A DNA stretch of 64,000 nucleotides from an uncultured Acidimicrobiaceae bacterium (GCA_963800065.1 CAWCZO010000007.1:176474-240473); one strand, 5' to 3'; numbered from the stretch's first letter, positions 10,607-27,952 are shown. Notes: generated from the letters alone by a model not told the origin. A program made the numbers and translations.

Positions 10607-11859
10607 AGGAGGTCCGCCTGGCCTACGGGCGCGTCGGTCTGGGCGTGTGGGTGCCCGACGCCGCCACCGTGATCACCCCGACCGACCTTCCCGGTCTGGC
10701 CGACGAGACGGGGGCCGTCCTCGACGCGCTGCGGTCGCCGTCGTCGGGGCCTCCCCTGGCCGACCTGGTGGGCCGGCACGACCGGGTGGCCGTCGTCTTC
10801 CCCGACCTGACACGGCCGATGCCGAACCGGACGGTGCTGCCGCCGCTGTTGGCCGAGCTCGAGCGGTCGGGGGCCGGACCGGACCGGGTGGAGCTGCTGT
10901 GCGCCACCGGAACCCACCGCCAGGCCACCGCCGGGGAGATGGCCGAGCTCGTCGGCGACGAGATCGTGGCCCGCTACGCCGTCCACGACCACCGGGCCGA
11001 CGACGGCGCCCACGTCGAGGTGGGCGTGGTGGACGGCGCTCCCGTTCTCATCGATCCCCGCTACGTCGACGCCGACGTCCGGATCCTGACGGGCTTCGTC
11101 GAGCCGCATTTCTTCGCCGGCTTCAGCGGCGGGCCCAAGGGGATGTGCCCGGGCCTGGCCGCCACCGAGACGATCCTCGAGGCCCACAGCCCGGGACGGA
11201 TCGCCCACGAGCGCGCCACGTGGCTGGTCACCGACGGGAATCCCGTCCACGACTTCGTCCGGGCCGCCGCCGCCCTGGCGCCGCCCACCCTGTCGGTCGA
11301 CGTGGCCATCAACAACCGTCGTCAGCTCACCGCCGTCTTCGCCGGGCCGCTCCCCGACGGGCACCGCGCCGCCTGCGACTTCGTGGAGGCGACGGCGGTG
11401 AGCGGCGTCGACGGGCGCTTCGACGTCGTCCTGACCACCAACGCCGGCTACCCGCTCGACCGGAACCTCTATCAGGCGGTGAAGGGGATGGCGGCGGCGG
11501 AACGGGTGGTGACCGACGGCGGGACCATCGTGGTGGCCGCCGCCTGTGCCGACGGTGTGCCGGCCGGAGGCTCCTTCGCCCGGCTCCTGGCCGCCGCACC
11601 CGATGGCACCGCCCTGGCCGGTTCCGACGTCCCGTCCGAGCCCGACCGCTGGCAGGTCCAGGTGCTCGGACGCGTGCTGCGCCGCGCCGCCGTCTGGTTG
11701 CACAGCGACGGCCTGACCGACGACGAGGTCCGCGGGGCGCACCTGTCTCCGGTCGGCGATGTCTCCGATGCCGTGGCCCTGGCCGTCGACCGGGCCGGCC
11801 CGGGAGCACGCGTCTGCGTCCTTCCGCAGGGTCCCCTCACCGTCGCCACCGCCCGCTGA
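10603..11859 (+). CDS. LarA-family nickel-pincer-dependent 2-hydroxyacid racemase/epimerase homolog
   Basis: From GTG 10603 (VKEVRLAYG). CATGTHR (catalytic His) and GFVEPHFFAGFSGGPKGMCPG (NPN-tethering Lys) are conserved as I recall them from LarA. GTGA overlap with the kinase gene. Confidence 0.8.
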   Translation: MKEVRLAYGRVGLGVWVPDAATVITPTDLPGLADETGAVLDALRSPSSGPPLADLVGRHDRVAVVFPDLTRPMPNRTVLPPLLAELERSGAGPDRVELLCATGTHRQATAGEMAELVGDEIVARYAVHDHRADDGAHVEVGVVDGAPVLIDPRYVDADVRILTGFVEPHFFAGFSGGPKGMCPGLAATETILEAHSPGRIAHERATWLVTDGNPVHDFVRAAAALAPPTLSVDVAINNRRQLTAVFAGPLPDGHRAACDFVEATAVSGVDGRFDVVLTTNAGYPLDRNLYQAVKGMAAAERVVTDGGTIVVAAACADGVPAGGSFARLLAAAPDGTALAGSDVPSEPDRWQVQVLGRVLRRAAVWLHSDGLTDDEVRGAHLSPVGDVSDAVALAVDRAGPGARVCVLPQGPLTVATAR

Positions 11860-11911
11860 GCGACGCCCGTCGCCTATCCCTGACAACTACGTCAGGGATA
11901 GAGTGCCGACG

Positions 11912-14104
11912 ATGTCCGAGGGGGTGCTGTTCGAGTTCACCGTTCCCGACGAGCTCCTCCGGGAGGCCGTCACCCGTCTTCCCGAGGCGGAAGCCGAGGC
12001 CGCCATCGGCGTCATCCCCGGCACCGGCGAAGGCAAGCCGCCGCCCCTCATCGGAATCCTGCGCCAGAGCGGGTTCGCCCCGCTGGTGCTTCTCACGGTG
12101 GCCGCCATCGTCCCGAGCACCTTCGGGGCCGGGATCAACCTGATCGGGAACAACCTCGAGCACTCCTTCCACCTGAGTGACGCCGGGCTCGGGGCCGTGG
12201 CCTTCGTGGCCTCGGTGTCGCAGTTCCTGTGGGCGGTGCCGCTGGCGCTGTGGGCCGACCGGGGGTCGCGGAAGGTGGTGGCGGCCGTGGCCCTGCTGAT
12301 CTTCTGCGTGTTCGGGACCCTGATGGGCCTCTCCCCCAACATCTGGTGGTTCGTCTTCCTCTACCTGCTGGCCTCGTTGGGCGTGAGCGTCAACCAGACC
12401 GTGCACAACTCGTTCCTGGCCGACGCCTACCCCACCGAGGGTCGCAGCCGGGTGTTCAGCTGGCACTATCTGGCCGACCCGATCGCCCAGACGGTGGGCA
12501 TCTTGATCTTCGGGTCCATCGTCACCTACACGCACGACTGGCGCTGGGGCCTGGTGGTGGCCGGGGCCGGTGTCCCCATCGCCCTGGCCCTCTTCAGCCT
12601 GCACGAGCCGGACAAGGGGGCCAACGAGTCGAGTCACATCCTGAAGGCGTCGGGCATGGACACTCACGCCCAGCAGCAGAGCGCCCCCCGCGTCCTGCTG
12701 GGATCGGCCGTGACGCGGCTGCTGCGGATCCGCTCGCTCTACTACCAGCTCGTGGCCGTGGCCGTCCTCGGCTTCGTGGGGATCAGCTCGGCGCTGTTCG
12801 GCAACCTCTACTTCGTGCGCGTGTGGCACCAGAGCACGGCGCATCGCAGCGTCATCAACTCCATCATCGGGCTGGCCGCCTTCCTGGGGCTGCCGGTGGC
12901 CTACACGGTGGGCGACCGGCTCTTCCGCCGCGCCCCCCAGGCCCCGCTGCTCCTGGCCGGCGTCTGCATCGCCGTCTACGGGTCGCTGTACAGCGTGTCT
13001 CTCTACATGCCCAACCTGTGGATGGTGGTGGTCCTGCAGTTCCTGGCCAACGCGGCGGTGGCGCCCATCGCCATATCCATCTTCCAGACACTGGCGGCCA
13101 CCGCCCCCGCCGAGATGCGGTCCATCTGCTTCGCCATGTTCGGCGTCTACTCGGCCATCCTGGGGGGATTCGCCGGCGGGATCATCCTCGGGGCGGTGAG
13201 TGACTCCACCAACGTCACCACCGCCCTCACCTTCATCGGCCCCGTCTGTCTGGTGGGGGGATTCCTTCTCGCCGTCGGGTCCCGTTACGTGCGGCGGGAC
13301 ATCACCATGGTCATCGAAGACGTCCTCGAGCGTTACGCCGAAGGCAAGAGACGGCAATCCGGTGGCGCCATCCCCGCCCTCCAGATCCACAACCTCGACT
13401 TTTTCTACGGGACCCAGCAGGTCCTCTTCGACATCAACCTCGAGGTGGCCGAGGGCGAGATCGTGGCCTTGTTGGGGACCAACGGCGCCGGGAAGAGCAC
13501 GCTGCTGCGGGCTGTCTCGGGCCTCGACCACCCCCACCGGGGGGTCATCCGCATCAAGGGTGCCAACTGCACGTACCTCGAGCCCGAACAGATCATCGAC
13601 CAGGGTGTGGCCCTCCTCGTGGGGGGGAAGATGACCTTTCCGGGACTGACAGTGCGGGAGAACCTGCGCGTCGGTGAGTATTCGTTCCGCCGTGAGGGTC
13701 CCCGGGTGCGCGCCGCCATCGAGGAGGCCATCGGGGTGTTCCCCGAGCTCGAGGCCCGCCTCGACCAGCCGGCAGGAACCCTGTCGGGGGGCGAGCAGCA
13801 GATGCTGGCCCTGGCCCGGGTCATGATGACCACGCCCCGGCTGCTGATGATCGACGAGCTGGCCCTGGGGCTGGCCCCCATCACCGTCGAGCGCCTCATG
13901 GCCATCGTCCGGCGGGTCAACGCCGACGGGGCCACCGTCATCCTGGTGGAACAGAGCGTCAACCGGGCCATGAGCCTGGCCCAGCACGCCTTCTTCATCG
14001 AACGGGGAGAGGTCCGATTCGACGGTCCGACCGCTGAGCTCATGGAGCGCGACGACCTCCTGCGGCCGGTCTTCCTGACGGGTGCCGCGACGGGCTCGGA
14101 CTGA
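11912..14104 (+). CDS. Fusion protein: MFS-type membrane domain plus LivF-type ABC ATPase
   Basis: The N-terminal ~480 aa are hydrophobic with MFS motif A (LWADRGSRK). The C-terminal ~240 aa have Walker A GTNGAGKST, signature LSGGEQQ and Walker B LLMIDE. Confidence 0.8.
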   Translation: MSEGVLFEFTVPDELLREAVTRLPEAEAEAAIGVIPGTGEGKPPPLIGILRQSGFAPLVLLTVAAIVPSTFGAGINLIGNNLEHSFHLSDAGLGAVAFVASVSQFLWAVPLALWADRGSRKVVAAVALLIFCVFGTLMGLSPNIWWFVFLYLLASLGVSVNQTVHNSFLADAYPTEGRSRVFSWHYLADPIAQTVGILIFGSIVTYTHDWRWGLVVAGAGVPIALALFSLHEPDKGANESSHILKASGMDTHAQQQSAPRVLLGSAVTRLLRIRSLYYQLVAVAVLGFVGISSALFGNLYFVRVWHQSTAHRSVINSIIGLAAFLGLPVAYTVGDRLFRRAPQAPLLLAGVCIAVYGSLYSVSLYMPNLWMVVVLQFLANAAVAPIAISIFQTLAATAPAEMRSICFAMFGVYSAILGGFAGGIILGAVSDSTNVTTALTFIGPVCLVGGFLLAVGSRYVRRDITMVIEDVLERYAEGKRRQSGGAIPALQIHNLDFFYGTQQVLFDINLEVAEGEIVALLGTNGAGKSTLLRAVSGLDHPHRGVIRIKGANCTYLEPEQIIDQGVALLVGGKMTFPGLTVRENLRVGEYSFRREGPRVRAAIEEAIGVFPELEARLDQPAGTLSGGEQQMLALARVMMTTPRLLMIDELALGLAPITVERLMAIVRRVNADGATVILVEQSVNRAMSLAQHAFFIERGEVRFDGPTAELMERDDLLRPVFLTGAATGSD

Positions 14105-14110
14105 GCCGGC

Positions 14111-16171
14111 GTGTCGCTCCCCCCGTCCGTCATCCTCGAGGGGGCCATCCTCGGCCTCGACTACGGGCTCCTGGCGGTGGGCCTGGTCCTGATCTACCGG
14201 ACCAGTCGGGTGGTGAATTTCGCCCAGGGCCAGCTCGGTGTGGTGGCCGCCGTCTTCCTGGTCAAGCTCTTCTACGACTTCGGCTTCAACTACTGGCTGG
14301 CGCTCGTCATCTCCGTGTCCCTGGCCGCCGCCGTCGGCGCCTTGTCGGAGCTCATCCTCCGCCGTCTGTTCAACCGGCCCCGGGTCCTCGTCATGGTGGC
14401 CACCATCGGACTGTCGCAGGTGCTGTACCTGTTCACCTTGTTCCCCTTCATCCGGCCCAAGAAGCTGTACCTGCCGTTTCCCGTGCCCATCGACTGGACC
14501 TTCCACATCGGGACCTTCCTCTTCTCCCCGGGCGAGGTCCTCACCCTGATCGTGGCGCCCATCGTGGTGATCGCCCTGGCCGCCTTCATCCGGCTCTCCT
14601 CGTGGGGTCTGGCCATGCGGGCCACGGCCGAGAACGCCGAGTCGGCCCGGCTGTCGGGCGTGTGGGTGCGGCGGACCTCGACGGTGGCTTGGACCTTGGC
14701 CGGCGCCCTGTCGGCCGTCACGGCGGTGCTCGCCTCCCCCGGCCAGACGAGCGCGCTGACCGACGTCCTCAGCCCCGACCTGCTCCTCCTGGCCCTCCTG
14801 GCCGCCCTGATCGGGGGGATGGTGAGTCTCCCCGTGGCCTTCATCGCCGGGATCGGTGTCGGCGTGGTGGACGACCTTCTCCAGTGGAACATCACCAATC
14901 CGTCGACGGGATCGGCCACCGTCGAGCTCATCCTCTTCCTCCTGCTCCTGGGGGCGCTGCTCCTGCGGGCCGCCTCCCTGCAGAAGGGGACCAGGGTGGG
15001 GGAACGATCCTCGTGGGCCATGGGGACGTCCTTCTTCCGCACCACGGGCGACGCCCTGCGCAAGAGAGTGGGATGGACCGGTGTGGGTGTCAGCCTGGTG
15101 GTGGCCATCCTCCTGCCCTTCGTCATCGGTGTGGGCCACTCCTTCCTCATGTCCCAGATCTGCCTCTACGGGGTCATCGCCCTGTCGTTGACCGTGCTCA
15201 CGGGGTGGTCGGGACAGGTGTCGCTGGGCCAGTTCGGCTTCGTCGCCGTGGGGGCCGACATCGCCACCCACATCGGTGCCAGCCTCCCTCTGGTGCTGCT
15301 GCTCCCCGTGGCCGGGGCCGCCACGGCGCTGGTATCGATCCTGGTGGGGCTCACGGCCCTGCGCATCCGCGGCCTCTACCTGGCCGTGAGCACCCTGGGA
15401 TTCGCCCTGTTCATGCAGACATCGGTGTTGGCCACCTCCTGCTTCACGCTGCCCCTGATCCACCGGACCATCTGCTCCGGACTTCCCGATCCCGAGTCGA
15501 CCCTGCTCTCCCGGCCGTCGCTGTTCGGGCTCAACCTGTCGTCGGAACAGTCCTTCGCCTGGTTCTCGCTGGGCGTTCTCGTCCTCTCGGTGCTCATGGT
15601 GCGGGTCTGGCGCGACCGGGGGGTGGCCCGCCGCCTCATCGCCGTGCGCGACAACGAGATGGCCGCCGGCTCGGCCGGCATCCCCGTCGTGCGGACCAAG
15701 CTGTTGGCCTTCGCCCTGTCGGGCTTCATGGCCGGCTACGCCGGGGTGTGCCTGGCCTTCGCCACCGAGCGGATCAGCACCGACACCTTCGACCCCACCT
15801 TCTCGATCCTGGTCGTCTCCATGGTGGTGATCGGCGGGCTCGACTCGATCCCCGGGGCCCTGCTCGGTGCTCTCTACCTCGAGGGCCTTCCGGCCTTCTT
15901 CGGTTCCACCCCCACCGTCGAGTTCCTCACCAGCGGCGCCGGGCTCCTCGTCTTCATCCTCTATCTCCCCGGCGGGATGGCCCAGGTCCTCCACCGGTTC
16001 GGTGACCTGGTCACCGCCGGGGTGGAGAACCTGCGGACCCGGTGGGGCGGCGCCCCGCCCGGCGATCCGGCCGACGCGCCGTCGCAGAACCCCGCCGTCC
16101 GTCCCCTCGGCCCCGATCCGCGGCCCCGCGACCCCACCGGGGCCGGCGCTCTCACCATGGCCGATCCGTGA
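14111..16171 (+). CDS. Fused LivH-LivM branched-chain-type ABC permease
   Basis: 686-aa polytopic protein. First half has LIYRTSRVVNFAQGQ (LivH-like). Second half has LTGWSGQVSLGQFGF (LivM-like). Confidence 0.85.
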   Translation: MSLPPSVILEGAILGLDYGLLAVGLVLIYRTSRVVNFAQGQLGVVAAVFLVKLFYDFGFNYWLALVISVSLAAAVGALSELILRRLFNRPRVLVMVATIGLSQVLYLFTLFPFIRPKKLYLPFPVPIDWTFHIGTFLFSPGEVLTLIVAPIVVIALAAFIRLSSWGLAMRATAENAESARLSGVWVRRTSTVAWTLAGALSAVTAVLASPGQTSALTDVLSPDLLLLALLAALIGGMVSLPVAFIAGIGVGVVDDLLQWNITNPSTGSATVELILFLLLLGALLLRAASLQKGTRVGERSSWAMGTSFFRTTGDALRKRVGWTGVGVSLVVAILLPFVIGVGHSFLMSQICLYGVIALSLTVLTGWSGQVSLGQFGFVAVGADIATHIGASLPLVLLLPVAGAATALVSILVGLTALRIRGLYLAVSTLGFALFMQTSVLATSCFTLPLIHRTICSGLPDPESTLLSRPSLFGLNLSSEQSFAWFSLGVLVLSVLMVRVWRDRGVARRLIAVRDNEMAAGSAGIPVVRTKLLAFALSGFMAGYAGVCLAFATERISTDTFDPTFSILVVSMVVIGGLDSIPGALLGALYLEGLPAFFGSTPTVEFLTSGAGLLVFILYLPGGMAQVLHRFGDLVTAGVENLRTRWGGAPPGDPADAPSQNPAVRPLGPDPRPRDPTGAGALTMADP

Positions 16172-17082
16172 CCGACGACGACGCAACCAAGACGGGCCCG
16201 GCCCGCCTCGACATCGAGGACCTGGTGGTCGCCTACGGGGGACTGCGGGCCGTGAACGGCGCCAGCCTGGCCGTCGGAGCGGGGGCGATCGTCGGCCTCA
16301 TCGGGGCCAACGGATCGGGGAAGACGACGTTGCTCGACGCCGTGTCGGGCCTCGTGGCCCCCTCGGAGGGACGGCTGCTGCTCGACCAGGTGGACATGGT
16401 CGACTACCGACCCGAGGAGCGCGCCCGGCTGGGGATGGTCCGTTCGTTCCAGGACTGCCGCCTCTATCCGGAGTTGACGGTGGAGGACACGCTCATGTTG
16501 TGCGAGGACGCGCGTCGTCGGGTCAGCGTGCTGTCGACCACCCTGCAGTTGCCGTGGGCGCGTCGTGCCGAACGGGAGAAGCGCCAGGCGATCGAAGGCG
16601 TGATCGCCTCGTTCGGGCTCGAGAGGTTCCGGCTCCACCAGACCGCCCATCTGTCGACGGGCACGCGCCGGGTGGTGGACCTGGCGTCCATCGTCCTGGC
16701 CAATCCCCGTCTGCTGCTGCTCGACGAACCCACCGCCGGGATCGCCCAGCGCGAGGCCGAGGCCTTCATCCCCCTGTTGCGACGGCTGCACGAGGTGACC
16801 GACTCCACCATCCTCCTCGTGGAGCACGACGTGCCGCTCGTCTTCGAGCTGTGTTCGACGGTGGTCGTCATGCAGACGGGGGAGGTCGTGTCAGTCGGCA
16901 CGCCCGACGAGGTCAAGCGCGACCCCAAGGCTCTGGCCGCCTATCTGGGAGCGAGCGAGGAGGCGTTGAACGTATCGGGCCCGTTGGCCGCCTCGTCGGC
17001 CCGACCCCCGGAACGGGGATCGGGCCAGCCGGGGGCCGACCCCGGCCCGCCGGGTCCGGCACCGTCGGGGGAGGACGGGTGA
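16168..17082 (+). CDS. LivG-type ABC ATPase
   Basis: From GTG 16168 (GTGA overlap). Walker A GANGSGKTT, LSTGTRR signature and LLLLDEP Walker B. Confidence 0.85.
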   Translation: MTDDDATKTGPARLDIEDLVVAYGGLRAVNGASLAVGAGAIVGLIGANGSGKTTLLDAVSGLVAPSEGRLLLDQVDMVDYRPEERARLGMVRSFQDCRLYPELTVEDTLMLCEDARRRVSVLSTTLQLPWARRAEREKRQAIEGVIASFGLERFRLHQTAHLSTGTRRVVDLASIVLANPRLLLLDEPTAGIAQREAEAFIPLLRRLHEVTDSTILLVEHDVPLVFELCSTVVVMQTGEVVSVGTPDEVKRDPKALAAYLGASEEALNVSGPLAASSARPPERGSGQPGADPGPPGPAPSGEDG

Positions 17083-19463
17083 CGGCCGGGGCTCTCGACG
17101 GGATCCGCATCCTCGACCTGTCCCAGGGGATCGCTGGGCCGCTCGGCGTGCTCTTCCTGGCCGAGCACGGCGCCGACGTGATCAAGGTGGAACCGCCGGG
17201 GGGTGATCCGTTCCGGTCGTACGAGGGCTACCGGGTGTGGAACCGCAGCCGGCGCTCCGTGGTGGTCGACCTCCGGCGCGACGAGGGGAGGGCGCAGTTC
17301 GGCGGCCTGGTGGCCAGTGCCGACGTGGTCGTCGAGAGCTTCCGTCCCGGGGTGAGCGGCCGACTCGGTCTCGGCTACGAGGCGCTGCGCGGCGACAACG
17401 ACAGGATCATCCTGGTGTCGTGCCCCGCCTACCCGCCCGGGCATCCTCTGGCCGACGAGCCCGCCTACGACGCCCTCGTCCAGGCCTCGAGCGGCCAGAT
17501 GTGGGCCCAGCCCGGTTGGCGCCCGGGCCCCGTCTTCCTGCACATGCCCGTGCCCTCCATGGGGGCGGTCTTCCTGGTCGCCGCCGGGGCGTTGGCGGCG
17601 CTGTCGGCGCGCCAACGGACCGGGCTCGGTCAGCACGTGGAGACGTCGTTGCTGGCCGGGGCGCTGCTCTTCACGACGCAGCTCTACCAGGACGTCGAGA
17701 ACCCCGGTCCCGGGTATCACGAGCTGATGGCCAAGACGTATCCGCCCGGGATCCACCAGACCATGCTTTTCGAATGTGCCGCCGGAGCCTGGATCCACAT
17801 CTCGGTGATGTCGGGGCTGCCGCCGCTCAAGACCCTCGACGAGGTCATCGGCCTCGAGGACGCCCCCGACGTCCTCACCCTGATGGGCCTGTCGCCGGCC
17901 GAGCGCGCCGAACTCGACGTCCGGCGCCGGCGACGGATGCGGGCGTGGGACGCCGAGGATCTGGTGGAGGAGCTGCGCCGCCACAACCACGCGGCGGAGG
18001 CGGTGGTGCCGGCCCACGACGTGCTCCGTCATGTCCAGACGGTGGCCAACGACACGGTGGTCACGGTGGACGATCCCGACCGGGGCCCGACACGGCAGAT
18101 GGGCGTCCCCATCCACCTGCTCGGCACCCCCGGTGCCGTGAAGGGACCGCAGCCAAGCGTGGGCCAGCACACCGACGAGGTGCTCGGTTCGCTCCCGGCA
18201 CCGGCCCCCACCCCGGCCCCGGCTCCGGTCGCCCCGTCGACGCCGGGCGTGGCCCTGGGTGACGTTCGCGTGATCGACCTCGGCCAGTACCTGGCCGGTC
18301 CCTTCGGGCCCATGATCCTGGCCGACCTGGGTGCTGACGTGGTGAAGATCGAGCCCGTCACCGGAGACTCGATGCGGTTCTCGGCCAAGCCCTTCATCGG
18401 CTGTCAACGCGGGAAGCGCTCGTTGGCCCTCGATCTCAAGCACCCGTCGGGGTTGGAAGCGGCCCGACGGCTGATAGCGGGGGCCGATGTCGTCCACCAC
18501 AACATGACGCGGGGCGTCGCCTCGCGGCTGGGCATCGACTATGCCGCCTGCCGGGAACTGCGGCCCGACATCATCTACTGCAACACCTACGCCTACGGGC
18601 TGGCCGACCCGTTGGGCCGGTTCGGCGGGCTGGACCCCCTCTACCAGGCGTCGTCCGGTCTCGAGTACGAGGCCGGAGCCGTGCGTCACGGGAACGATCC
18701 CCTGTACCTGCGCTTCGGGATGTGCGACACGGCCAACGCCATGCTGTCGGTCGTGGGCGTCCTGCTGGCCCTCGTCCACCGGGCCCGGACAGGCGTTGGT
18801 CAGGAGCTGTGGACGTCGCTGCACGACGGCGGGATGGTCTTCACGTCCGATGCGTGGACCGGTCCCGACGGCGCCGTGTGGGACCGTCCCCAGATGGACC
18901 GGGGCCTGCACGGCATCGACGCGCTGTACCGGCTCTACCCCACGGCCGACGACGGGTGGATCTGCCTGGCGGCGGTGACCGAGGACCAGTGGGACCGACT
19001 GTGCGCGTCGCTCGGTCCCGAGGACCTCGCCGGCGACCCCCGCTTCGCCACGGCCTCGGCCCGGCGGGAGAACCGTCAGGAGCTCGAGGACCGGTTGCAG
19101 GCCGTGTTCGCCGGCGCCACCGCCACCCATTGGGCCGGCGTCCTCGAGACCGGCGGCGTCCCTCATCAGGTGCCGGTGGACACCGATGACGGGCGTCAGA
19201 TCCTGCATGACGCCGACAACATCTCGCTGGGGCTGGTGGCCGACTACGAGCACGGGGTGCTCGGGCGGTTGCGCCAGTTCGGGCAGCTGATCCAGATGGC
19301 ACCGACACCGGGGCGGATCGCCGGGCCCCCTCCCCTGGTGGGGGAGCACACACGCCAGCTGTTGCGCGAGGCGGGCTACCGGGACGCCGACATCGACACC
19401 CTCATCGCCCAAGGCGTGGCCTACGAACCGGACGACGCCTACCGGGAGCGCTTCGTCACCTGA
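17079..19463 (+). CDS. Tandem (duplicated) family III CoA-transferase (CaiB/BaiF x2)
   Basis: From GTG 17079 (GTGA overlap with livG-like). Two complete modules, each starting G(I/V)R(I/V)(L/I)DL..AGP and each keeping the catalytic-Asp motif (AYDALVQASSG and GLDPLYQASSG). They are joined by a PAPAPTPAPAPVAP linker. Confidence 0.85.
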   Translation: MTAGALDGIRILDLSQGIAGPLGVLFLAEHGADVIKVEPPGGDPFRSYEGYRVWNRSRRSVVVDLRRDEGRAQFGGLVASADVVVESFRPGVSGRLGLGYEALRGDNDRIILVSCPAYPPGHPLADEPAYDALVQASSGQMWAQPGWRPGPVFLHMPVPSMGAVFLVAAGALAALSARQRTGLGQHVETSLLAGALLFTTQLYQDVENPGPGYHELMAKTYPPGIHQTMLFECAAGAWIHISVMSGLPPLKTLDEVIGLEDAPDVLTLMGLSPAERAELDVRRRRRMRAWDAEDLVEELRRHNHAAEAVVPAHDVLRHVQTVANDTVVTVDDPDRGPTRQMGVPIHLLGTPGAVKGPQPSVGQHTDEVLGSLPAPAPTPAPAPVAPSTPGVALGDVRVIDLGQYLAGPFGPMILADLGADVVKIEPVTGDSMRFSAKPFIGCQRGKRSLALDLKHPSGLEAARRLIAGADVVHHNMTRGVASRLGIDYAACRELRPDIIYCNTYAYGLADPLGRFGGLDPLYQASSGLEYEAGAVRHGNDPLYLRFGMCDTANAMLSVVGVLLALVHRARTGVGQELWTSLHDGGMVFTSDAWTGPDGAVWDRPQMDRGLHGIDALYRLYPTADDGWICLAAVTEDQWDRLCASLGPEDLAGDPRFATASARRENRQELEDRLQAVFAGATATHWAGVLETGGVPHQVPVDTDDGRQILHDADNISLGLVADYEHGVLGRLRQFGQLIQMAPTPGRIAGPPPLVGEHTRQLLREAGYRDADIDTLIAQGVAYEPDDAYRERFVT

Positions 19464-19506: not shown

Positions 19507-20376
19507 TCAGCCCTCGGGGTCGCGGGGCCGGGCCGGGCCGTAGGGGCGGGGGCCGCGCAAGGTGACCCGGTGGGCTACGCGGAGGGCGTCGCCGTAGTCG
19601 TCGAGGGCGTAGTGCAGGGTGGCCCGGTTGTCCCAGAAGGCGACGGCACCGACCTTCCAACGGAAGCGGCAGCTGAATTCGGGGCGCTGGCAGTGGCGGT
19701 AGAGCAGATCGAGGAAGGCGGTGCTCTCGAGAGGAGAGAAGCCTTCGATGAAGCGGGTGAATTGCGAGTTGACGAAGAGGCCGTTGCGGCCCGTCTCGGG
19801 GTGGGTGCGGACCACGGGATGTGAGGTCGGCAGCAGCTTGTCGTGTCGCTTGCCGTCCCACTCGTAGCCGCCGCTGGCCTCGACGTCGGCGGCGAACCAC
19901 GGGTCGTGGTGCCAGGCGATGAGGCCGTCGCAGAGCCTGCGGATGGGCTCCGAGAGTGCGTCGTAGGCGGCCTGCAGGCTCACCCACATCGTGTCCCCGC
20001 CCACGGCCGGGGCTTCGCGCATGTGGAGGATCGAGCCGAGCGGCGGTGTGGCCAGGAAGGTGATGTCGGTGTGCCACCACGAGGCGCGGTCCTCCCGTCC
20101 GTCGATGGGGAGCACTTCGGGATGGCCGGCGAGAGAATCGATGACCGGATGGGCCGGGGTGACCTCGCCGAATTGGCGGGCGAAGGCCGTCTGCACCTCG
20201 GGACTCAGGTCCTGATCGAGGAAGAACAGGACGAGGTGACGGGCCAGGGCCGCCCTCAGCTGGGCCACCACGGGGTCCCCGAGCGGGCGCGATAGATCGA
20301 GGCCGTGGACCTCTGCCCCGATGACGGGGGAGATGGGCCGGATGTCCAATTCGGTCGCGACTACCACCTCGACCAT
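19507..20376 (-). CDS. TauD/TfdA-family Fe(II)/2-oxoglutarate dioxygenase
   Basis: 289 aa from ATG 20376. WHTDITF (HxD iron motif), DTMWVS and a C-terminal AHRVTL region typical of taurine/alkylsulfonate dioxygenases. Confidence 0.85.
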   Translation of the reverse strand: MVEVVVATELDIRPISPVIGAEVHGLDLSRPLGDPVVAQLRAALARHLVLFFLDQDLSPEVQTAFARQFGEVTPAHPVIDSLAGHPEVLPIDGREDRASWWHTDITFLATPPLGSILHMREAPAVGGDTMWVSLQAAYDALSEPIRRLCDGLIAWHHDPWFAADVEASGGYEWDGKRHDKLLPTSHPVVRTHPETGRNGLFVNSQFTRFIEGFSPLESTAFLDLLYRHCQRPEFSCRFRWKVGAVAFWDNRATLHYALDDYGDALRVAHRVTLRGPRPYGPARPRDPEG

Positions 20377-20502: not shown

Positions 20503-22023
20503 ATGAGGAGGTCCGACCCCGGAGGGTGGGCAAGGTCCCGGCGACGTCCGGGGAGCCGCGTCGGGGGCGGTCGCCGGGGCGGCGTGCTCATGGCGGTCGT
20601 CATCGTGGCGGCGGTGGTCGTGGCGGTCACGTCGGGGGCATCGTCGAGCTCGGCCTCGACGTCGTCGGCCAAGGCGGCCGGCATCGCCGCTCTGAACAAG
20701 GCCAGCACGAGCAGTCGGGGTGTCACGAAGACCACCATCAACGTCGTCTTCCCCATCTCCAACCTGACCAGCCTGGCGTCCAACTTTGGTTTCGCCGGGG
20801 ACGTCGAGTTCGGGGAGCAGAAGAAGGCCATCAACCTGTTCGTGAAGGCAGCCAACGCCAATGGCGGCATCAACGGCCGCAAGATCAAGGCCATCATCGT
20901 CACTTTCGATCCCACCAACGAGGCCGAGATGCGGGCGGACTGCCTGCAGTGGACGGAAGGGAACCCGCCCGTCTTCGCCGTGGTGGACGGGTTGGGATCG
21001 TGGACGGGGGACAACGAGCTGTGCATCACCCAGGAGCACCACACGCCATTCATCGGGCAGTGGACGACGACCACCAACTGGACGAAGGAAGGCGCCCCCT
21101 ACCTGTGGTGGACGGGTCCCGATCAGGCATCGATCCTGAGCACGCTGGTGTCGTGGGCCAAAGGGGCGAAATTGCTGGGAGGGGACCGGAAGGTGGCCAT
21201 CGTGGCCGGGGACCGGGCCAGCGACCAATTGGCGTTGAAGGACTATCTCCTCCCCGACCTCAAACGCGACGGGATCCCCAGGCCGATGATCGAGACCATC
21301 CCGGCCGGCGCCTCGGACACGGCGGCCACCGGGGCGGCGGCGCCGCTGATCGTGCAGCGCCTGCAGGCGGCCGGCATCGATTCGGTCATCCCCCTGATGC
21401 CGTTCAACGCCATGTTCCCGTACCTGCAGGCCGAGTCCCAGGAGCACTACTACCCGAGGCTCCTGCTGTCGGACTACGAGGGCTCCATCGAGTCGTCGTT
21501 GGGGCTGATCCCGCAACCGTACGAAAAGGAGCTCAACGGCCAGGAGGGCGTGACGGTCGAGACCCTGGGCGGCACCGACGCGCCCATCTCCGAGAGCCTG
21601 GGCGGCTACGACCCCGGCGTGGAGAAGTGCTACAAGGTCTGGCACGCCGCCTACCCCAAGCCCCCCCCGGGTGAGACCCTCATCCACGGCGAGAAGGCGA
21701 CGCCCTACATCGAGGAGCAGGGACCGGTTGCCGGGTGGTGCCAAGGCGTCGAACTGTTCGCCCTGGCGGCCAAGAAGGCCGGGCGCGACCTGACACGCCG
21801 CAGCTTCGTGAAGGCGATGGCCAGCATCACGTCCTACCAGGGCACGTACTCACCGGACATGAGCTACGGGCCGGGGAAGTACGCCGGACCCAACGAGTAC
21901 CAGGTGGTCGAGATCCACAACAACGTGCCGGCGTCCAAGTTGTGCGTCCTCACGTCCCAGAAGATCACCCAGGGAACGTGTTGGCACGTCATCCAGAGTT
22001 GGAGGCCGCTTGTCACGGGTTGA
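20503..22023 (+). CDS. Secreted ABC substrate-binding protein (Leu/Ile/Val-binding-protein-type fold)
   Basis: ATG 20503 preceded by GAGGAGG. Arg-rich N-terminus, TM/signal segment VIVAAVVVAV, and Ser-rich linker. GINGRKIK and VDGLGSW resemble type I periplasmic binding proteins. Confidence 0.7.
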   Translation: MRRSDPGGWARSRRRPGSRVGGGRRGGVLMAVVIVAAVVVAVTSGASSSSASTSSAKAAGIAALNKASTSSRGVTKTTINVVFPISNLTSLASNFGFAGDVEFGEQKKAINLFVKAANANGGINGRKIKAIIVTFDPTNEAEMRADCLQWTEGNPPVFAVVDGLGSWTGDNELCITQEHHTPFIGQWTTTTNWTKEGAPYLWWTGPDQASILSTLVSWAKGAKLLGGDRKVAIVAGDRASDQLALKDYLLPDLKRDGIPRPMIETIPAGASDTAATGAAAPLIVQRLQAAGIDSVIPLMPFNAMFPYLQAESQEHYYPRLLLSDYEGSIESSLGLIPQPYEKELNGQEGVTVETLGGTDAPISESLGGYDPGVEKCYKVWHAAYPKPPPGETLIHGEKATPYIEEQGPVAGWCQGVELFALAAKKAGRDLTRRSFVKAMASITSYQGTYSPDMSYGPGKYAGPNEYQVVEIHNNVPASKLCVLTSQKITQGTCWHVIQSWRPLVTG

Positions 22024-25157: not shown

Positions 25158-26342
25158 ATGATCCACAAGGGCGCGTTGATCCGCATCGGAGCGGTCCTGA
25201 TGCTGTCGGGGCTACTCCTGGCGGCGTGCAGCTCGAGCCCCAGCCCGAGTTCGACTTCGAGCAGCACCACGGCGACGTCGGGCAGCGCCGCCTTGGCGCT
25301 CCAGGCCGCCATCGCCGCCACCAACGCCGGCTACAAGGGTACGAGCACCAACGTCAATCCGACGCCCCGGCCGGCGGCCAAGAACAAGACCATCGTGATC
25401 ATCTCCGCCGGTCAGGGTGCCGACAGCAACTCGGTGCCGGTGGCGGGCGCCCTCCAGGCGGCCCAGGCCATCGGCTGGCACGCGTCCATCTATGACGCCA
25501 TGCTGAACCCGTCCAACTACGCCGGCCTCGTCCGCCAGGCGATCGCCGCCCACGTGAACGGGATCATTCTCGACGCCATCGACTGCTCGACGGTGAAGGG
25601 CCCGCTCGAGCAGGCCAAGGCGGCGGGCATCGCCGTGACGGCCATGTACGCCTTCGACTGCAACGACCCCCACTCCGGGGGCGGTACGACGAAGCTGTTC
25701 GGCGGGGTCACCAACTACGGGGCCAAGAACGCCAACCTGGACAAGTTCACCGAGTCCTACGGCTCTGACCAGGCCAACTACATCATCGCCAAGTCGGACA
25801 ACAAGGCCAAGATCATCGTGGTCCAGGACCCCGAGTTCACCGTTCTCTATTACACGGCGCTGGGCTTCGACAACACCATCGCCGCCTCGCACGGCTCCAA
25901 GGTCATCGCCACCCTGGACATCACGCAGGAGGACCTCGTCGACGGGCAGGTGGTGCCGATCATCCAGGCCGAACTGGCCCGGTATCCCCAGGCCACCTGG
26001 ATCAAGAGTCCCTTCACCTACGCCACCACCCTGGGCATCGTCCCCGCCCTCGGGACCAACCCCAACCACATCAGCGTCATGGGTGGAGAGGGCTTCCATG
26101 ACGAGCTCGACGACATCAGATCGGGGAAGATCGTCGCCACCAACGCCATCTCGTCCAACTGGACCGGGTGGGCGGCGGTGGACACTCTGAACAGCATCTT
26201 CAATCACACGGCGCCGGTGGACAGCGGCATCGGCTGGACGCTCGTCGACGCCACCCACAACCTCCCCTCGAACCCGGCGGCCGACTACGAGCCCCCCATC
26301 AACTACCAGGCCGAGTACAAGAAGGCGTGGGGAGTGGGCTGA
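25158..26342 (+). CDS. Sugar ABC transporter substrate-binding lipoprotein (RbsB-like)
   Basis: GGGGAGGG SD 7 nt upstream. Lipobox LLLAACSS. Periplasmic-binding-protein type I pattern. Confidence 0.85.
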   Translation: MIHKGALIRIGAVLMLSGLLLAACSSSPSPSSTSSSTTATSGSAALALQAAIAATNAGYKGTSTNVNPTPRPAAKNKTIVIISAGQGADSNSVPVAGALQAAQAIGWHASIYDAMLNPSNYAGLVRQAIAAHVNGIILDAIDCSTVKGPLEQAKAAGIAVTAMYAFDCNDPHSGGGTTKLFGGVTNYGAKNANLDKFTESYGSDQANYIIAKSDNKAKIIVVQDPEFTVLYYTALGFDNTIAASHGSKVIATLDITQEDLVDGQVVPIIQAELARYPQATWIKSPFTYATTLGIVPALGTNPNHISVMGGEGFHDELDDIRSGKIVATNAISSNWTGWAAVDTLNSIFNHTAPVDSGIGWTLVDATHNLPSNPAADYEPPINYQAEYKKAWGVG

Positions 26343-27952
26343 TGCCCGACCCCGGCCAGCCGGGTGATCCGCAGCACCCCCCACCGACCGCACCGGCTCA
26401 CGACGAGTCACCGACCCCAGGGTCGCCCCCCGGGGTGGCCCTGCGGGTCGAGCACCTGTCCAAGACGTTCCCCGGGACACGGGCACTCATCGACGTGTCC
26501 TTCGCCGTGCGGGCCGGCGAGATCCACGCCCTCGTAGGGGGAAACGGGTCCGGCAAGTCGACCCTCATCAAGATCCTGGCCGGCGTCTACCACGGCGACC
26601 CCGGGGGGACGATCACCGTGGGAGACACCACACTGTCCGCCGACCACACCACCCCGGCCAAGGCCAAGGCGCTCGGCCTCCACTTCGTGCACCAGAACCC
26701 GGCGGTGTTCCCCGCCCTGTCGGTGTCCGAGAACATGGTCATCGGCCACGGTTTCACCACCAACGGGGTGGGGTCGATCAAGTGGCGGGCGCTGCGCCGG
26801 CAGACGCAGGCCCTGCTCGACCGCTTCGAGATCAACGTGCGCCCCGAAGCCCTGGTGAGCTCTCTGCGGCCGGCCGAGCGCGCCATGGTGGCCATCGCCC
26901 GGGCCCTGCAGGACCAGGAGGGACAGCACACCGGGGTGCTGGTCCTCGACGAGCCGACGGCCTCCCTGCCGCGTGCCGAGGTGGTACGCCTGATGGGAGC
27001 GTTGAACCGGTTCGCGGCGGCCGGACAGACCATCCTGTTCGTGAGCCACCGGCTCGACGAGGTGATCGACACCGCCGCCGAGGCCACCGTGCTTCGTGAC
27101 GGACGCCTGGCCGGCACCCTGGTCGGTGCCGAGATCACCGAGGAGCGGCTGATCGAGCTCATCGCCGGCCGGACCCTCGACCGGATGTACCCGGTCATGC
27201 CCCCGGTCGAGAGTGACGCGGTGGCCCTCGAAGCCAGAGGCCTGACGGGAGGACCACTGCGGGGAGTCGATTTCCAGCTACGGCGGGGCGAGGTCCTGGG
27301 GGTCGCCGGCCTGCTCGGTTCGGGTCGGTCCGAGTTGCTGAAGATGATCTTCGGCGCCTACCCGATCAAGTCGGGAACGCTGCTCGTCGACGGGAAGCCC
27401 GTGCGGTTCCGCGACATCGGCGACGCCATGGCGGCGGGGATCGCCTACGTTCCCGAGGACCGCGGTGGGGAAGCCGCCTTTCTCAATCAGAGCCTGGCCG
27501 ACAATGTCGTGGCCTCGTCCATCGGTCGGTACTGGCGCGCCCTGCGGTTGCGGAACCGGGCCATCGACCACGATGCCCGGGACATCATCACCCGCTACTT
27601 CATCCGGGCGTCCTCGGAGAAGCAGGTGATGGGCACCTTGTCGGGTGGGAACCAACAGAAGGTGGTGCTGGCCCGCTGGCTCAGCCGAGGCCCCCACATC
27701 CTCCTGCTCGACGAGCCCACCCAAGGTGTCGACGTGAACGCCCGGGCCGAGATCTATGCCCTGATCAGTAAGGCTGTCGGCGACGGCTGTTCCGTGCTCC
27801 TGGTCACGAGCGACTTCGAGGAGCTGTCGAGGGTGGCGGACCGCGCCGTCGTGCTGAGCGGCGGGAGGGTCACGGCCGAGCTGAGGGGGGCCGAGATCGA
27901 GCCCGTCCGCCTGACCGAACTGGCCTTCAGCACCCAGGAGGTGGCCTCATGA
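26342..27952 (+). CDS. Sugar ABC transporter ATPase (two ABC domains, RbsA/MglA-like)
   Basis: ATG 26342 overlaps the previous stop. Walker A GGNGSGKST. Second domain has LSGGNQQKV. Confidence 0.9.
   Translation: MPDPGQPGDPQHPPPTAPAHDESPTPGSPPGVALRVEHLSKTFPGTRALIDVSFAVRAGEIHALVGGNGSGKSTLIKILAGVYHGDPGGTITVGDTTLSADHTTPAKAKALGLHFVHQNPAVFPALSVSENMVIGHGFTTNGVGSIKWRALRRQTQALLDRFEINVRPEALVSSLRPAERAMVAIARALQDQEGQHTGVLVLDEPTASLPRAEVVRLMGALNRFAAAGQTILFVSHRLDEVIDTAAEATVLRDGRLAGTLVGAEITEERLIELIAGRTLDRMYPVMPPVESDAVALEARGLTGGPLRGVDFQLRRGEVLGVAGLLGSGRSELLKMIFGAYPIKSGTLLVDGKPVRFRDIGDAMAAGIAYVPEDRGGEAAFLNQSLADNVVASSIGRYWRALRLRNRAIDHDARDIITRYFIRASSEKQVMGTLSGGNQQKVVLARWLSRGPHILLLDEPTQGVDVNARAEIYALISKAVGDGCSVLLVTSDFEELSRVADRAVVLSGGRVTAELRGAEIEPVRLTELAFSTQEVAS

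Follow-up and report, generated by a model that had tools for sequence, protein, structure and literature searches.

The closest described relatives of the system considered here are the binding-protein-dependent ATP-binding cassette (ABC) importers represented by Escherichia coli LivJ/LivK-LivHMGF and the HAAT family (TC 3.A.1.4, including UrtABCDE), in which two BPD_transp_2 permease domains are combined with a LivG-type ATPase bearing a BCA_ABC_TP_C tail and a Peripla_BP_6 binding protein. All of these elements recur in an operon that we analyzed in a 64,000-nucleotide stretch of DNA (hereafter the window) from an uncultured Acidimicrobiaceae bacterium (GCA_963800065.1, CAWCZO010000007.1:176474-240473); as in HAAT LivF/UrtE, the switch His of the LivF-type ATPase is replaced by Gln (VEQ). 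Unlike the E. coli Liv and HAAT systems, however, the operon carries a 12-helix major facilitator superfamily (MFS) domain at the N-terminus of its LivF subunit and encodes LivH and LivM as one chain; its equivalog-model scores lie far below cutoff, and its neighborhood points away from branched-chain amino acids.

The MFS domain has both its best fold match and its best PDB sequence matches among the Spinster transporters (SPNS2, SPNS1 and HnSpns; TC 2.A.1.49), and most members of the family to which it belongs resemble Spinster proteins in what is reportedly their 'N..D..DR' pattern in transmembrane helix 1 (TM1) and 'R..G.G' pattern in TM4. Extra domains attached to core ABC subunits include the C-terminal domains of MetN, ModC and MalK, which are small and soluble, and the TMD0 of ABCC proteins, a five-helix bundle. 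By analogy with these, the MFS domain could tune the ATPase or organize the complex, but it differs from them in being a complete transporter fold, with gating motifs of its own, at the ATPase N-terminus. The locus also resembles the TRAP and TTT binding-protein-dependent secondary transporters in pairing the gene for a periplasmic binding protein with that for a secondary-transporter fold; unlike those systems, to which it has no homology, it includes a full ABC importer as well, and any use of the binding protein by its MFS domain is hypothetical. ABC and MFS proteins constitute the two largest transporter classes, textbook-separate machines that run on ATP and on ion gradients, respectively, and are here joined in one polypeptide.

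Results

A complete MFS domain is fused in frame to LivF

Positions 11912-14104 of the window (G+C content about 70%) form, on the plus strand, a single stop-free frame of 730 codons, the start of which is consistent with homologues that are 730-737 aa long and align from residue 1. Motif, Pfam and NCBIfam checks were run on the window proteins. In the 730-aa product, MFS_1 matches residues 78-421 (97.7 bits against a cutoff of 33.4, E=8e-28; profile positions 18-345 of 347, 328 covered) and ABC_tran matches residues 506-649 (98.6 bits, E=6e-28), with GTNGAGKST at residues 522-530, LSGGEQQ at 624-630 and LLMIDE at 644-649. The best full-length NCBIfam matches to the ATPase part, over residues 490-712, are UrtE (185.5 bits) and LivF (166.1 bits), both below their equivalog cutoffs. 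A preliminary description of this DNA, made from the sequence alone, had read the gene as a complete MFS-like domain with the motif LWADRGSRK followed in frame by a LivF ATPase; both Pfam families and all of the motifs that it quoted were located, and its concern that the N-terminal domain might fail to match MFS models is answered by the MFS_1 match and by the fold match to SPNS2 described below. With a 12-helix fold, the MFS_1 match and both copies of motif A, the domain belongs to the MFS superfamily.

An AlphaFold2 model of the protein (mean predicted local distance difference test score, pLDDT, 75.5; predicted TM-score, pTM, 0.65) contains 12 TM helices and one unbroken helix, residues 442-482, that enters the ATPase, and a model of a 970-aa MFS-LivF-LivG relative (mean pLDDT 81.8) has the same TM12-stalk helix at residues 410-451. 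In both models, TM12 runs on unbroken as a charged helix of ~20 residues into the first LivF strand; the stalk is Glu/Arg-rich in fused forms. Foldseek matches the MFS part of the window model best to SPNS2 (8rl7_A, TM-score 0.80) and the ATPase best to 1ji0 (TM-score 0.80, 39% identity). The best whole-chain match of the 970-aa relative is the Mycobacterium tuberculosis tandem ATPase DppD in its ATP-bound form (8wdb_D, TM-score 0.60 over 554 columns), a match that fits a canonical ATPase dimer.

By sequence, the PDB matches of the MFS part are Spinster-type only (HnSpns, SPNS1 and SPNS2; 6e8j, 9boi and 7yub; E about 1e-7), and in NCBIfam it matches the ACS, OPA and AAHS families weakly, ACS and OPA equally closely, with every score far short of its cutoff. 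Identity to Spinster proteins is just 16-17%, and the clade to which the window protein belongs lacks the TM1 Asp/Arg and the TM4 Arg; work on HnSpns and SPNS2 is said to have found that a charged TM1 Asp/Arg pair and a TM4 Arg/acidic pair are used for coupling. The domain is Spinster-like in fold but, as these coupling residues are missing, is not assigned here to the Spinster family.

The fusion recurs in independent assemblies

A homologue search in a collection of 5.8 billion proteins gave 5,794 word-filtered matches to the window protein, of which the best 120 clusters were examined. These are 72-93% identical to it over 98-100% of its length, and every one contains both PF07690 and PF00005; they are drawn from NCBI, JGI, ENA and Logan assemblies, and the organism names attached to them are Acidimicrobiales only. 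Among genome records that carry an organism name, more distant fused members occur in Ilumatobacter fluminis (WP_166657336.1, on a contig of 4,775,416 bp) and in three Jiangella species. The junction is a conserved helix, with a ratio of nonsynonymous to synonymous substitution rates (dN/dS) of 0.13 in the linker, and no long homopolymer occurs at 13330-13420. The preliminary description had raised the possibility of a stop and start hidden at this junction by a sequencing error; although a paralogue in the same assembly has a one-base frame break in a run of G, so that the assembly is not error-free, the recurrence of the uninterrupted frame across the 120 clusters and the named records, together with the conserved junction, refutes the reading of two genes merged by a sequencing or assembly error, to which we attach a negligible probability. 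The fusion of an MFS domain to a Liv-type ATPase is thus genuine and in frame.

The view that this is not a standard architecture holds in one sense, in that we found no study of an MFS-LivF or MFS-ABC ATPase fusion in the full-text literature, most subscription journals and TCDB being outside our coverage. It does not hold in the sense of rarity: the architecture defines a large family, the members of which have already been named automatically in databases as 'MFS transporter', as 'ATP-binding protein' or with a double COG name.

MFS-LivF fusions occur in two phyla and have stand-alone and split relatives

The host genome (4.44 Mb, 11 contigs) carries an MFS-LivF fusion in three of its five LivF loci, the other two being canonical and without an MFS domain. 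The three paralogous layouts are MFS-LivF, LivH-LivM and LivG in the window; binding protein, MFS-LivF and LivH-LivM-LivG in the C10 paralogue; and LivH-LivM, MFS-LivF-LivG and binding protein in the C9 paralogue. In the C10 copy (L004, 8615-8635; about position 48,620 of contig C10), the frame shifts inside LSGGQ at a run of five G and LivF resumes in another frame, as would be expected of either a pseudogene or a homopolymer assembly error.

With the window MFS domain as query (E<=1e-20), 29 of 401 evenly sampled genomes of the phylum match, and 39 of the 48 matches lie within open frames of at least 637 aa. Fifteen loci were fetched from other genomes of the phylum; in all 13 of those with long frames, MFS and LivF are adjacent and in the same frame. 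Two layouts are found among the phylum loci, one with MFS-LivF followed by the permease (layout A) and one with the permease followed by MFS-LivF-LivG (layout B), and an unrooted tree of the MFS domains has one half dominated by each. The point of attachment is constant, the MFS domain always preceding LivF at its N-terminus.

Layout-B loci also encode a conserved, membrane-anchored protein of ~600 aa (L009 4303-6150, L012 3550-5292, L013 3782-5602, L014 10146-11936 and L005 11578-13434). Most copies have no Pfam match; given its remote, weak ties to Peripla_BP_6, the protein probably represents a binding protein that has grown in size and diverged strongly. Open frames of 1400-1738 aa were considered as whole-transporter fusions and rejected, as LivH-LivM and MFS-LivF-LivG occupy different frames; long stop-free frames arise in these loci because of their high GC. 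Two apparent fusions of a binding protein to an MFS domain (P0388 and P0254) were likewise rejected as frame-shifted or chimeric calls, with out-of-frame Arg/Pro-rich stretches and a poly-K tail, and, the calls being faulty, they provide no evidence that a binding protein works with the MFS domain.

Beyond the phylum, we scanned 301 genomes each of Chloroflexota, Bacillota and Pseudomonadota with a profile of 18 MFS domains (E<=1e-40). In Chloroflexota, 63 of the 301 genomes contain family-level MFS proteins, mostly of 420-520 aa; long frames occur in five genomes, and all six loci fetched are true MFS-LivF(-LivG) fusions inside Liv operons. Matches were found in 2 of 301 Bacillota genomes, both of stand-alone length, and in 33 of 301 Pseudomonadota genomes, nearly all of stand-alone length; no fusion was found in the sampled genomes of these two phyla, the one long Pseudomonadota frame that was checked being without Liv genes. 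Among 600 LivF-like stretches listed from all phyla, which are mostly plain LivF, eight matches begin within the first 120 residues of the query and hence include the MFS domain; all eight are from Actinomycetota, Dactylosporangium and Microthrixaceae among them. The taxonomic distribution, which the preliminary description had left to be traced, therefore takes in Actinomycetota and Chloroflexota: the MFS subfamily is widespread as an ordinary stand-alone transporter and is joined to Liv systems in at least these two phyla.

One Chloroflexota locus has the same partners in separate genes (L115; genome G515, contig C20, 5907-12999). LivH-LivM-LivF-LivG there occupies one open frame of at least 1172 aa, so that a single chain makes up an entire ABC transporter; a 564-aa anchored protein comes next, without a Pfam match and related by tblastn, at 25% identity (E=3e-22), to the binding proteins of layout B, and is followed by a separate 451-aa MFS protein, the start of which overlaps the stop of this binding-protein-like gene by 4 bases, so that the two are translationally coupled. 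The MFS protein ends just past a conserved 'V.RD' motif, at the point where fused forms run on into the charged stalk. This split arrangement indicates that a covalent link is not strictly needed for the partnership between the MFS domain and the Liv system.

Stand-alone relatives are found away from Liv genes, in varied surroundings. Two of them (L015, 6978-9604, and L016, 7278-10012) lie directly after alpha-L-fucosidase genes and cluster with fused forms at 100% support, and a third, from Microthrixaceae (L118, 6434-9535), is 52% identical to a fused MFS domain and has a carotenoid-cleavage oxygenase, an amine oxidase, an SDR and a P450 as neighbors. We trusted non-fused status only for copies checked in their genome context (L015, L016, L115 and L118); the 'stand-alone' labels of metagenome representatives were discarded as unreliable, many being truncated gene calls, and the tree on which they are placed needs 13 state changes. 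As these stand-alone and separate-gene forms exist, the MFS module is, as far as gene context indicates, autonomous, and appears to have been fused or split more than once, in a direction that the unrooted tree does not give.

The MFS domain is as constrained as the ATPase to which it is joined

Selection on the operon was gauged by Nei-Gojobori dN/dS relative to an orthologous locus (L027; 91% identical, same gene order). The value for the MFS domain, 0.098, is close to that of the LivF ATPase (0.093); it is the lowest among the membrane parts of the operon and about half that of LivH-LivM (0.21), with LivG at 0.23 and the binding protein at 0.275. Because it is as constrained as the ATPase, the MFS domain evidently contributes something important. 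Within the clade, the linker, at a majority residue frequency of 0.91, and the central cytoplasmic loop, at 0.87, are the most conserved segments, and among the helices TM2, 7, 8, 10 and 11 (0.84-0.87) exceed TM3, 6 and 9 (0.73-0.78). These last three helices are the lipid-facing ones of the canonical MFS fold, and the pattern of helix conservation looks like that of a working MFS protein.

The gating motifs are also intact. D116, R117 and R120 of the N-terminal motif A are invariant in the clade, as are G334, D335, F338, R339 and P342 of its C-terminal counterpart, and R120 and D171 at the end of TM4 are invariant across 18 distant family members (20-36% identity). In the motif-A charge relay of YajR, such residues reportedly serve conformational switching. 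Selection, the pattern of helix conservation and the intact gating motifs together strongly disfavor a passive anchor. The preliminary description had asked whether the domain transports, senses or merely anchors; on these data the last is now unlikely.

A tethered second route is the preferred reading of the fusion

The interpretation that we prefer, although we put it somewhat short of an even chance, is that the operon encodes a Liv/HAAT importer with a tethered, working MFS domain, which would act as an ATP-independent second route coupled to the importer through the stalk. Since LivF and the MFS domain form one chain and TM12 runs into LivF, each complex would contain one MFS module, rigidly tethered to the ATPase and, by our inferred placement, beside the permease. 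The module would be a working alternating-access domain rather than a passive anchor; the route that it supplies could serve the importer's own substrate, a related one, or the export of a product; and the stalk would allow the ATPase cycle and the state of the MFS domain to influence each other.

Several observations weigh against such a working carrier. In an alignment of 62 MFS domains, most family members, fused or free, have 'VDExDR' in TM1 and 'R..G.GK' in TM4; in the window clade these charged motifs are replaced by 'VPSTFGAG' and 'LYLLASLGVSV', with loss of the TM4 Arg and Lys. The equivalent charged residues in Spinster transporters are needed for coupled transport. TM4 of the window clade bears a polar, uncharged stripe (VNQTVHNSF), and ion coupling of the usual type is unlikely there. 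In the clade of the C9 paralogue, the family charges, the motif-A Asp and the second motif A are all lost, and the MFS domain changes far more rapidly than the ATPases of that clade (majority residue frequency 0.54-0.69 vs 0.78-0.82); retention of the domain without the usual transport residues favors a structural or regulatory role in that clade, and the role of the domain may differ between clades. The periplasmic loops of the MFS domain are short, with no obvious docking surface for a binding protein, and our low-confidence suggestion of a cargo (below) is drawn only from the gene neighborhood.

Some of these observations sit comfortably with a second interpretation, possible though on balance doubtful, in which the MFS domain is a 'transceptor' that senses or regulates from within the membrane: it would bind substrate or sense membrane potential and switch the Liv ATPase through the stalk, with no net transport of its own, much as the C-terminal domains of MetN, ModC and MalK regulate. 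No segments are more conserved than the stalk and linker, conservation of the central cytoplasmic loop is unusually high in the window clade, the charged coupling residues of the family have been lost while the gating motifs are kept, and the C9 clade retains the domain despite a degenerate motif A, all of which a sensor could explain. A sensor is harder to reconcile with the close stand-alone relatives, which lie in catabolic operons like ordinary transporters, with the separate MFS gene of L115, which would lack a covalent signaling path, and with core helices that are constrained as in a working carrier.

It is unlikely, we judge, that the ATPase cycle instead drives or gates the MFS domain through the TM12 stalk, yielding a primary-active or ATP-gated MFS protein, or that a shared binding protein also loads it. 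The link from TM12 through the stalk to the ATPase is geometrically like that of ABC exporters, in which TM6 connects to the nucleotide-binding domain, and the residues for proton coupling are absent in the window clade; but with one MFS half on one ATPase, the ATPase dimer could not clamp both lobes, and in L115 the MFS protein is a separate chain. As for loading by a binding protein, the gene for such a protein lies directly ahead of the MFS gene in several loci and is translationally coupled to it in L115, but the periplasmic loops are short and the orthologous L022 has no adjacent binding-protein gene. Were either variant true, one complex would hold primary and secondary pathways under one control, and the two main transporter classes would have been combined in nature; no described precedent for a primary/secondary hybrid complex of this kind was found in the literature searched.

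Also unlikely is a purely structural role, in which the MFS domain would have lost transport and would instead, in the manner of the TMD0 of ABCC proteins, anchor LivF and the permease or help to assemble them: it would account for the loss of cavity charges in the window clade, for the degenerate motif A of the C9 clade and for attachment always at the LivF N-terminus, but not for a dN/dS half that of the true permease, nor for a conserved core and two motif-A networks that an anchor would not need, and the canonical Liv systems of the same genome do without an MFS domain, while stand-alone relatives exist.

A working, tethered MFS domain thus remains the interpretation that we prefer. Whatever its role, the join is kept by selection in no fewer than two phyla, where it occurs in several gene orders and, in one operon, in split form, and it suggests candidate principles by which an ABC importer could be regulated or extended: uptake with dual affinity, a valve for products, a sensor embedded in the membrane or a carrier gated by ATP. 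Working out that role would make functional annotation feasible for a family whose members go by no more than 'MFS transporter' or 'ATP-binding protein' at present, and because Ilumatobacter fluminis and Jiangella alba are among the named genome records with the fusion, it is amenable to bench work.

The remainder of the operon encodes a binding-protein-dependent importer

The other genes of the locus (Table 1) bear out the preliminary description in its account of a fused LivH-LivM permease, of a LivG gene that overlaps its neighbors and of a lone matching binding protein beyond a convergent TauD gene. The 686-aa permease matches BPD_transp_2 in two stretches (189 bits), so that all three families for which domain scans had been suggested (MFS_1, ABC_tran and BPD_transp_2) are matched in the operon; its residues 8-279 are LivH/UrtB-like and its residues 317-629 LivM/UrtC-like. 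The preliminary description had labeled the system a type I importer, which would call for a permease fold like that of MalFG, ModB or MetI; the label is provisional, as no PDB chain matching the permease was found by phmmer or with a 16-sequence profile. BPD_transp_2 shares its Pfam grouping with FecCD, a type II fold. The GTG start of livG (16168) overlaps the permease stop within GTGA, and its product scores 186.9 bits against PRK11300, below the equivalog cutoff, and has the BCA_ABC_TP_C tail. The CoA-transferase gene is translationally coupled to livG in the same manner, its GTG start (17079) also lying within GTGA, with a GGAGGA ribosome-binding site ahead of it. The binding protein has an Arg-rich N-terminus, a single hydrophobic membrane anchor and a Ser/Ala-rich tether, and is the sole Liv-type binding protein in the neighborhood. 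From these assignments, the operon encodes a binding-protein-dependent Liv/HAAT-type ABC importer composed of an anchored Peripla_BP_6 protein, LivH-LivM and a LivG and LivF pair; the HAAT assignment holds at the level of family and not of orthology, the ATPase matches all falling below equivalog cutoffs.

Table 1. Coordinates, strand and supporting evidence for features of the operon and its neighbors, in positions of the window.
Feature	Coordinates	Strand	Evidence
MFS::LivF fusion gene, 730 aa	11912..14104	+	Single frame; Pfam MFS_1 and ABC_tran; 72-93% homologues with both domains
MFS domain, 12 helices, residues 56-463, Spinster-like fold	12077..13300	+	AlphaFold2, Foldseek, PDB sequence matches, dN/dS
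TM1 stretch, IVPSTFGAG here vs family VDExDR charged motif	12107..12133	+	Alignment of 62 family MFS domains
MFS motif A, N-terminal half, LWADRGSRK, residues 113-121	12248..12274	+	Motif search; clade-invariant residues
Motif A counterpart, C-terminal half, VGDRLFRRAP	12908..12937	+	Clade-invariant residues
TM12 and charged stalk/linker as one long helix, residues 442-482	13235..13357	+	AlphaFold2 model; clade conservation
LivF-type nucleotide-binding domain, residues 490-730	13379..14101	+	NCBIfam UrtE/LivF, Foldseek 1ji0, Walker A, signature and Walker B
Fused LivH-LivM permease, 686 aa	14111..16171	+	Two BPD_transp_2 stretches; LivH/UrtB and LivM/UrtC models
LivG-type ATPase, 304 aa	16168..17082	+	ABC_tran and BCA_ABC_TP_C; LivG model best
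Two-domain family III CoA-transferase, 794 aa	17079..19463	+	CoA_transf_3 twice
TauD-family dioxygenase gene, convergent, conserved neighbor	19507..20376	-	Pfam TauD, E=9e-63
Liv-type binding protein (Peripla_BP_6)	20503..22023	+	Pfam, E=1e-18

A perfect 11-bp inverted repeat, CTATCCCTGAC-N6-GTCAGGGATAG, lies at 11874-11901, 10 bases ahead of the start of MFS-LivF. It occurs just once in the window, where no chance match is expected, and its right arm covers the likely ribosome-binding site; a related sequence, GTCATGGATAGTGTG, occurs upstream in the orthologous L022. The repeat could be an operator or a translational hairpin. On the opposite strand, a 1449-aa open frame across the transporter genes (11837-16186) was rejected as a gene, its Arg/Gly/Pro-rich translation being a by-product of high G+C content.

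Conserved neighbors suggest a carbohydrate- or hydroxy-acid-related cargo

Synteny at 75-91% identity with three loci (L021, L022 and L027) extends over genes for a GH4 protein, an HIBADH-like dehydrogenase, a Cgl0159/DeoC aldolase, an FGGY kinase, a LarA-like racemase, the transporter, the convergent TauD protein, the binding protein and an Abhydrolase_7/CE15-like hydrolase. TauD has the same position in all three, and an orthologue of the binding protein the same place in L021 and L027; in L022 (75% identical; 15137-17117), no binding-protein gene separates TauD from the hydrolase, and the transporter genes are intact. The CoA-transferase occurs only in the nearest relatives (91-93%), as one gene in L027 and split in L026, and is absent from the 75-82% loci L021 and L022; it looks like an operon passenger and a recent insertion. 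In L026 (ENA contig_63829, 93% identical), the FGGY, LarA, permease and binding-protein genes are broken in the assembly, yet MFS-LivF is intact.

HAAT importers carry hydrophobic amino acids, urea or amides. Compared with the PDB, the binding protein of the window has only marginal similarity to Leu/Ile/Val-binding proteins (E=5e-3). With low confidence, we suggest that the substrate may be a sugar-derived or hydroxy-acid compound rather than a branched-chain amino acid; because the cavity in the window clade is uncharged and rich in Asn, Gln, His and Thr and the neighbors are carbohydrate or hydroxy-acid enzymes, a neutral, sugar-derived cargo seems more likely than an amino acid of that kind.

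A second, unrelated ABC system lies downstream at 25158-27920, where two LivF-like ATPase matches, each at 27% identity, come after the gene for a Peripla_BP_4 sugar-type binding protein (25158-26342); the two are probably parts of one tandem ATPase of a CUT2-type sugar importer.

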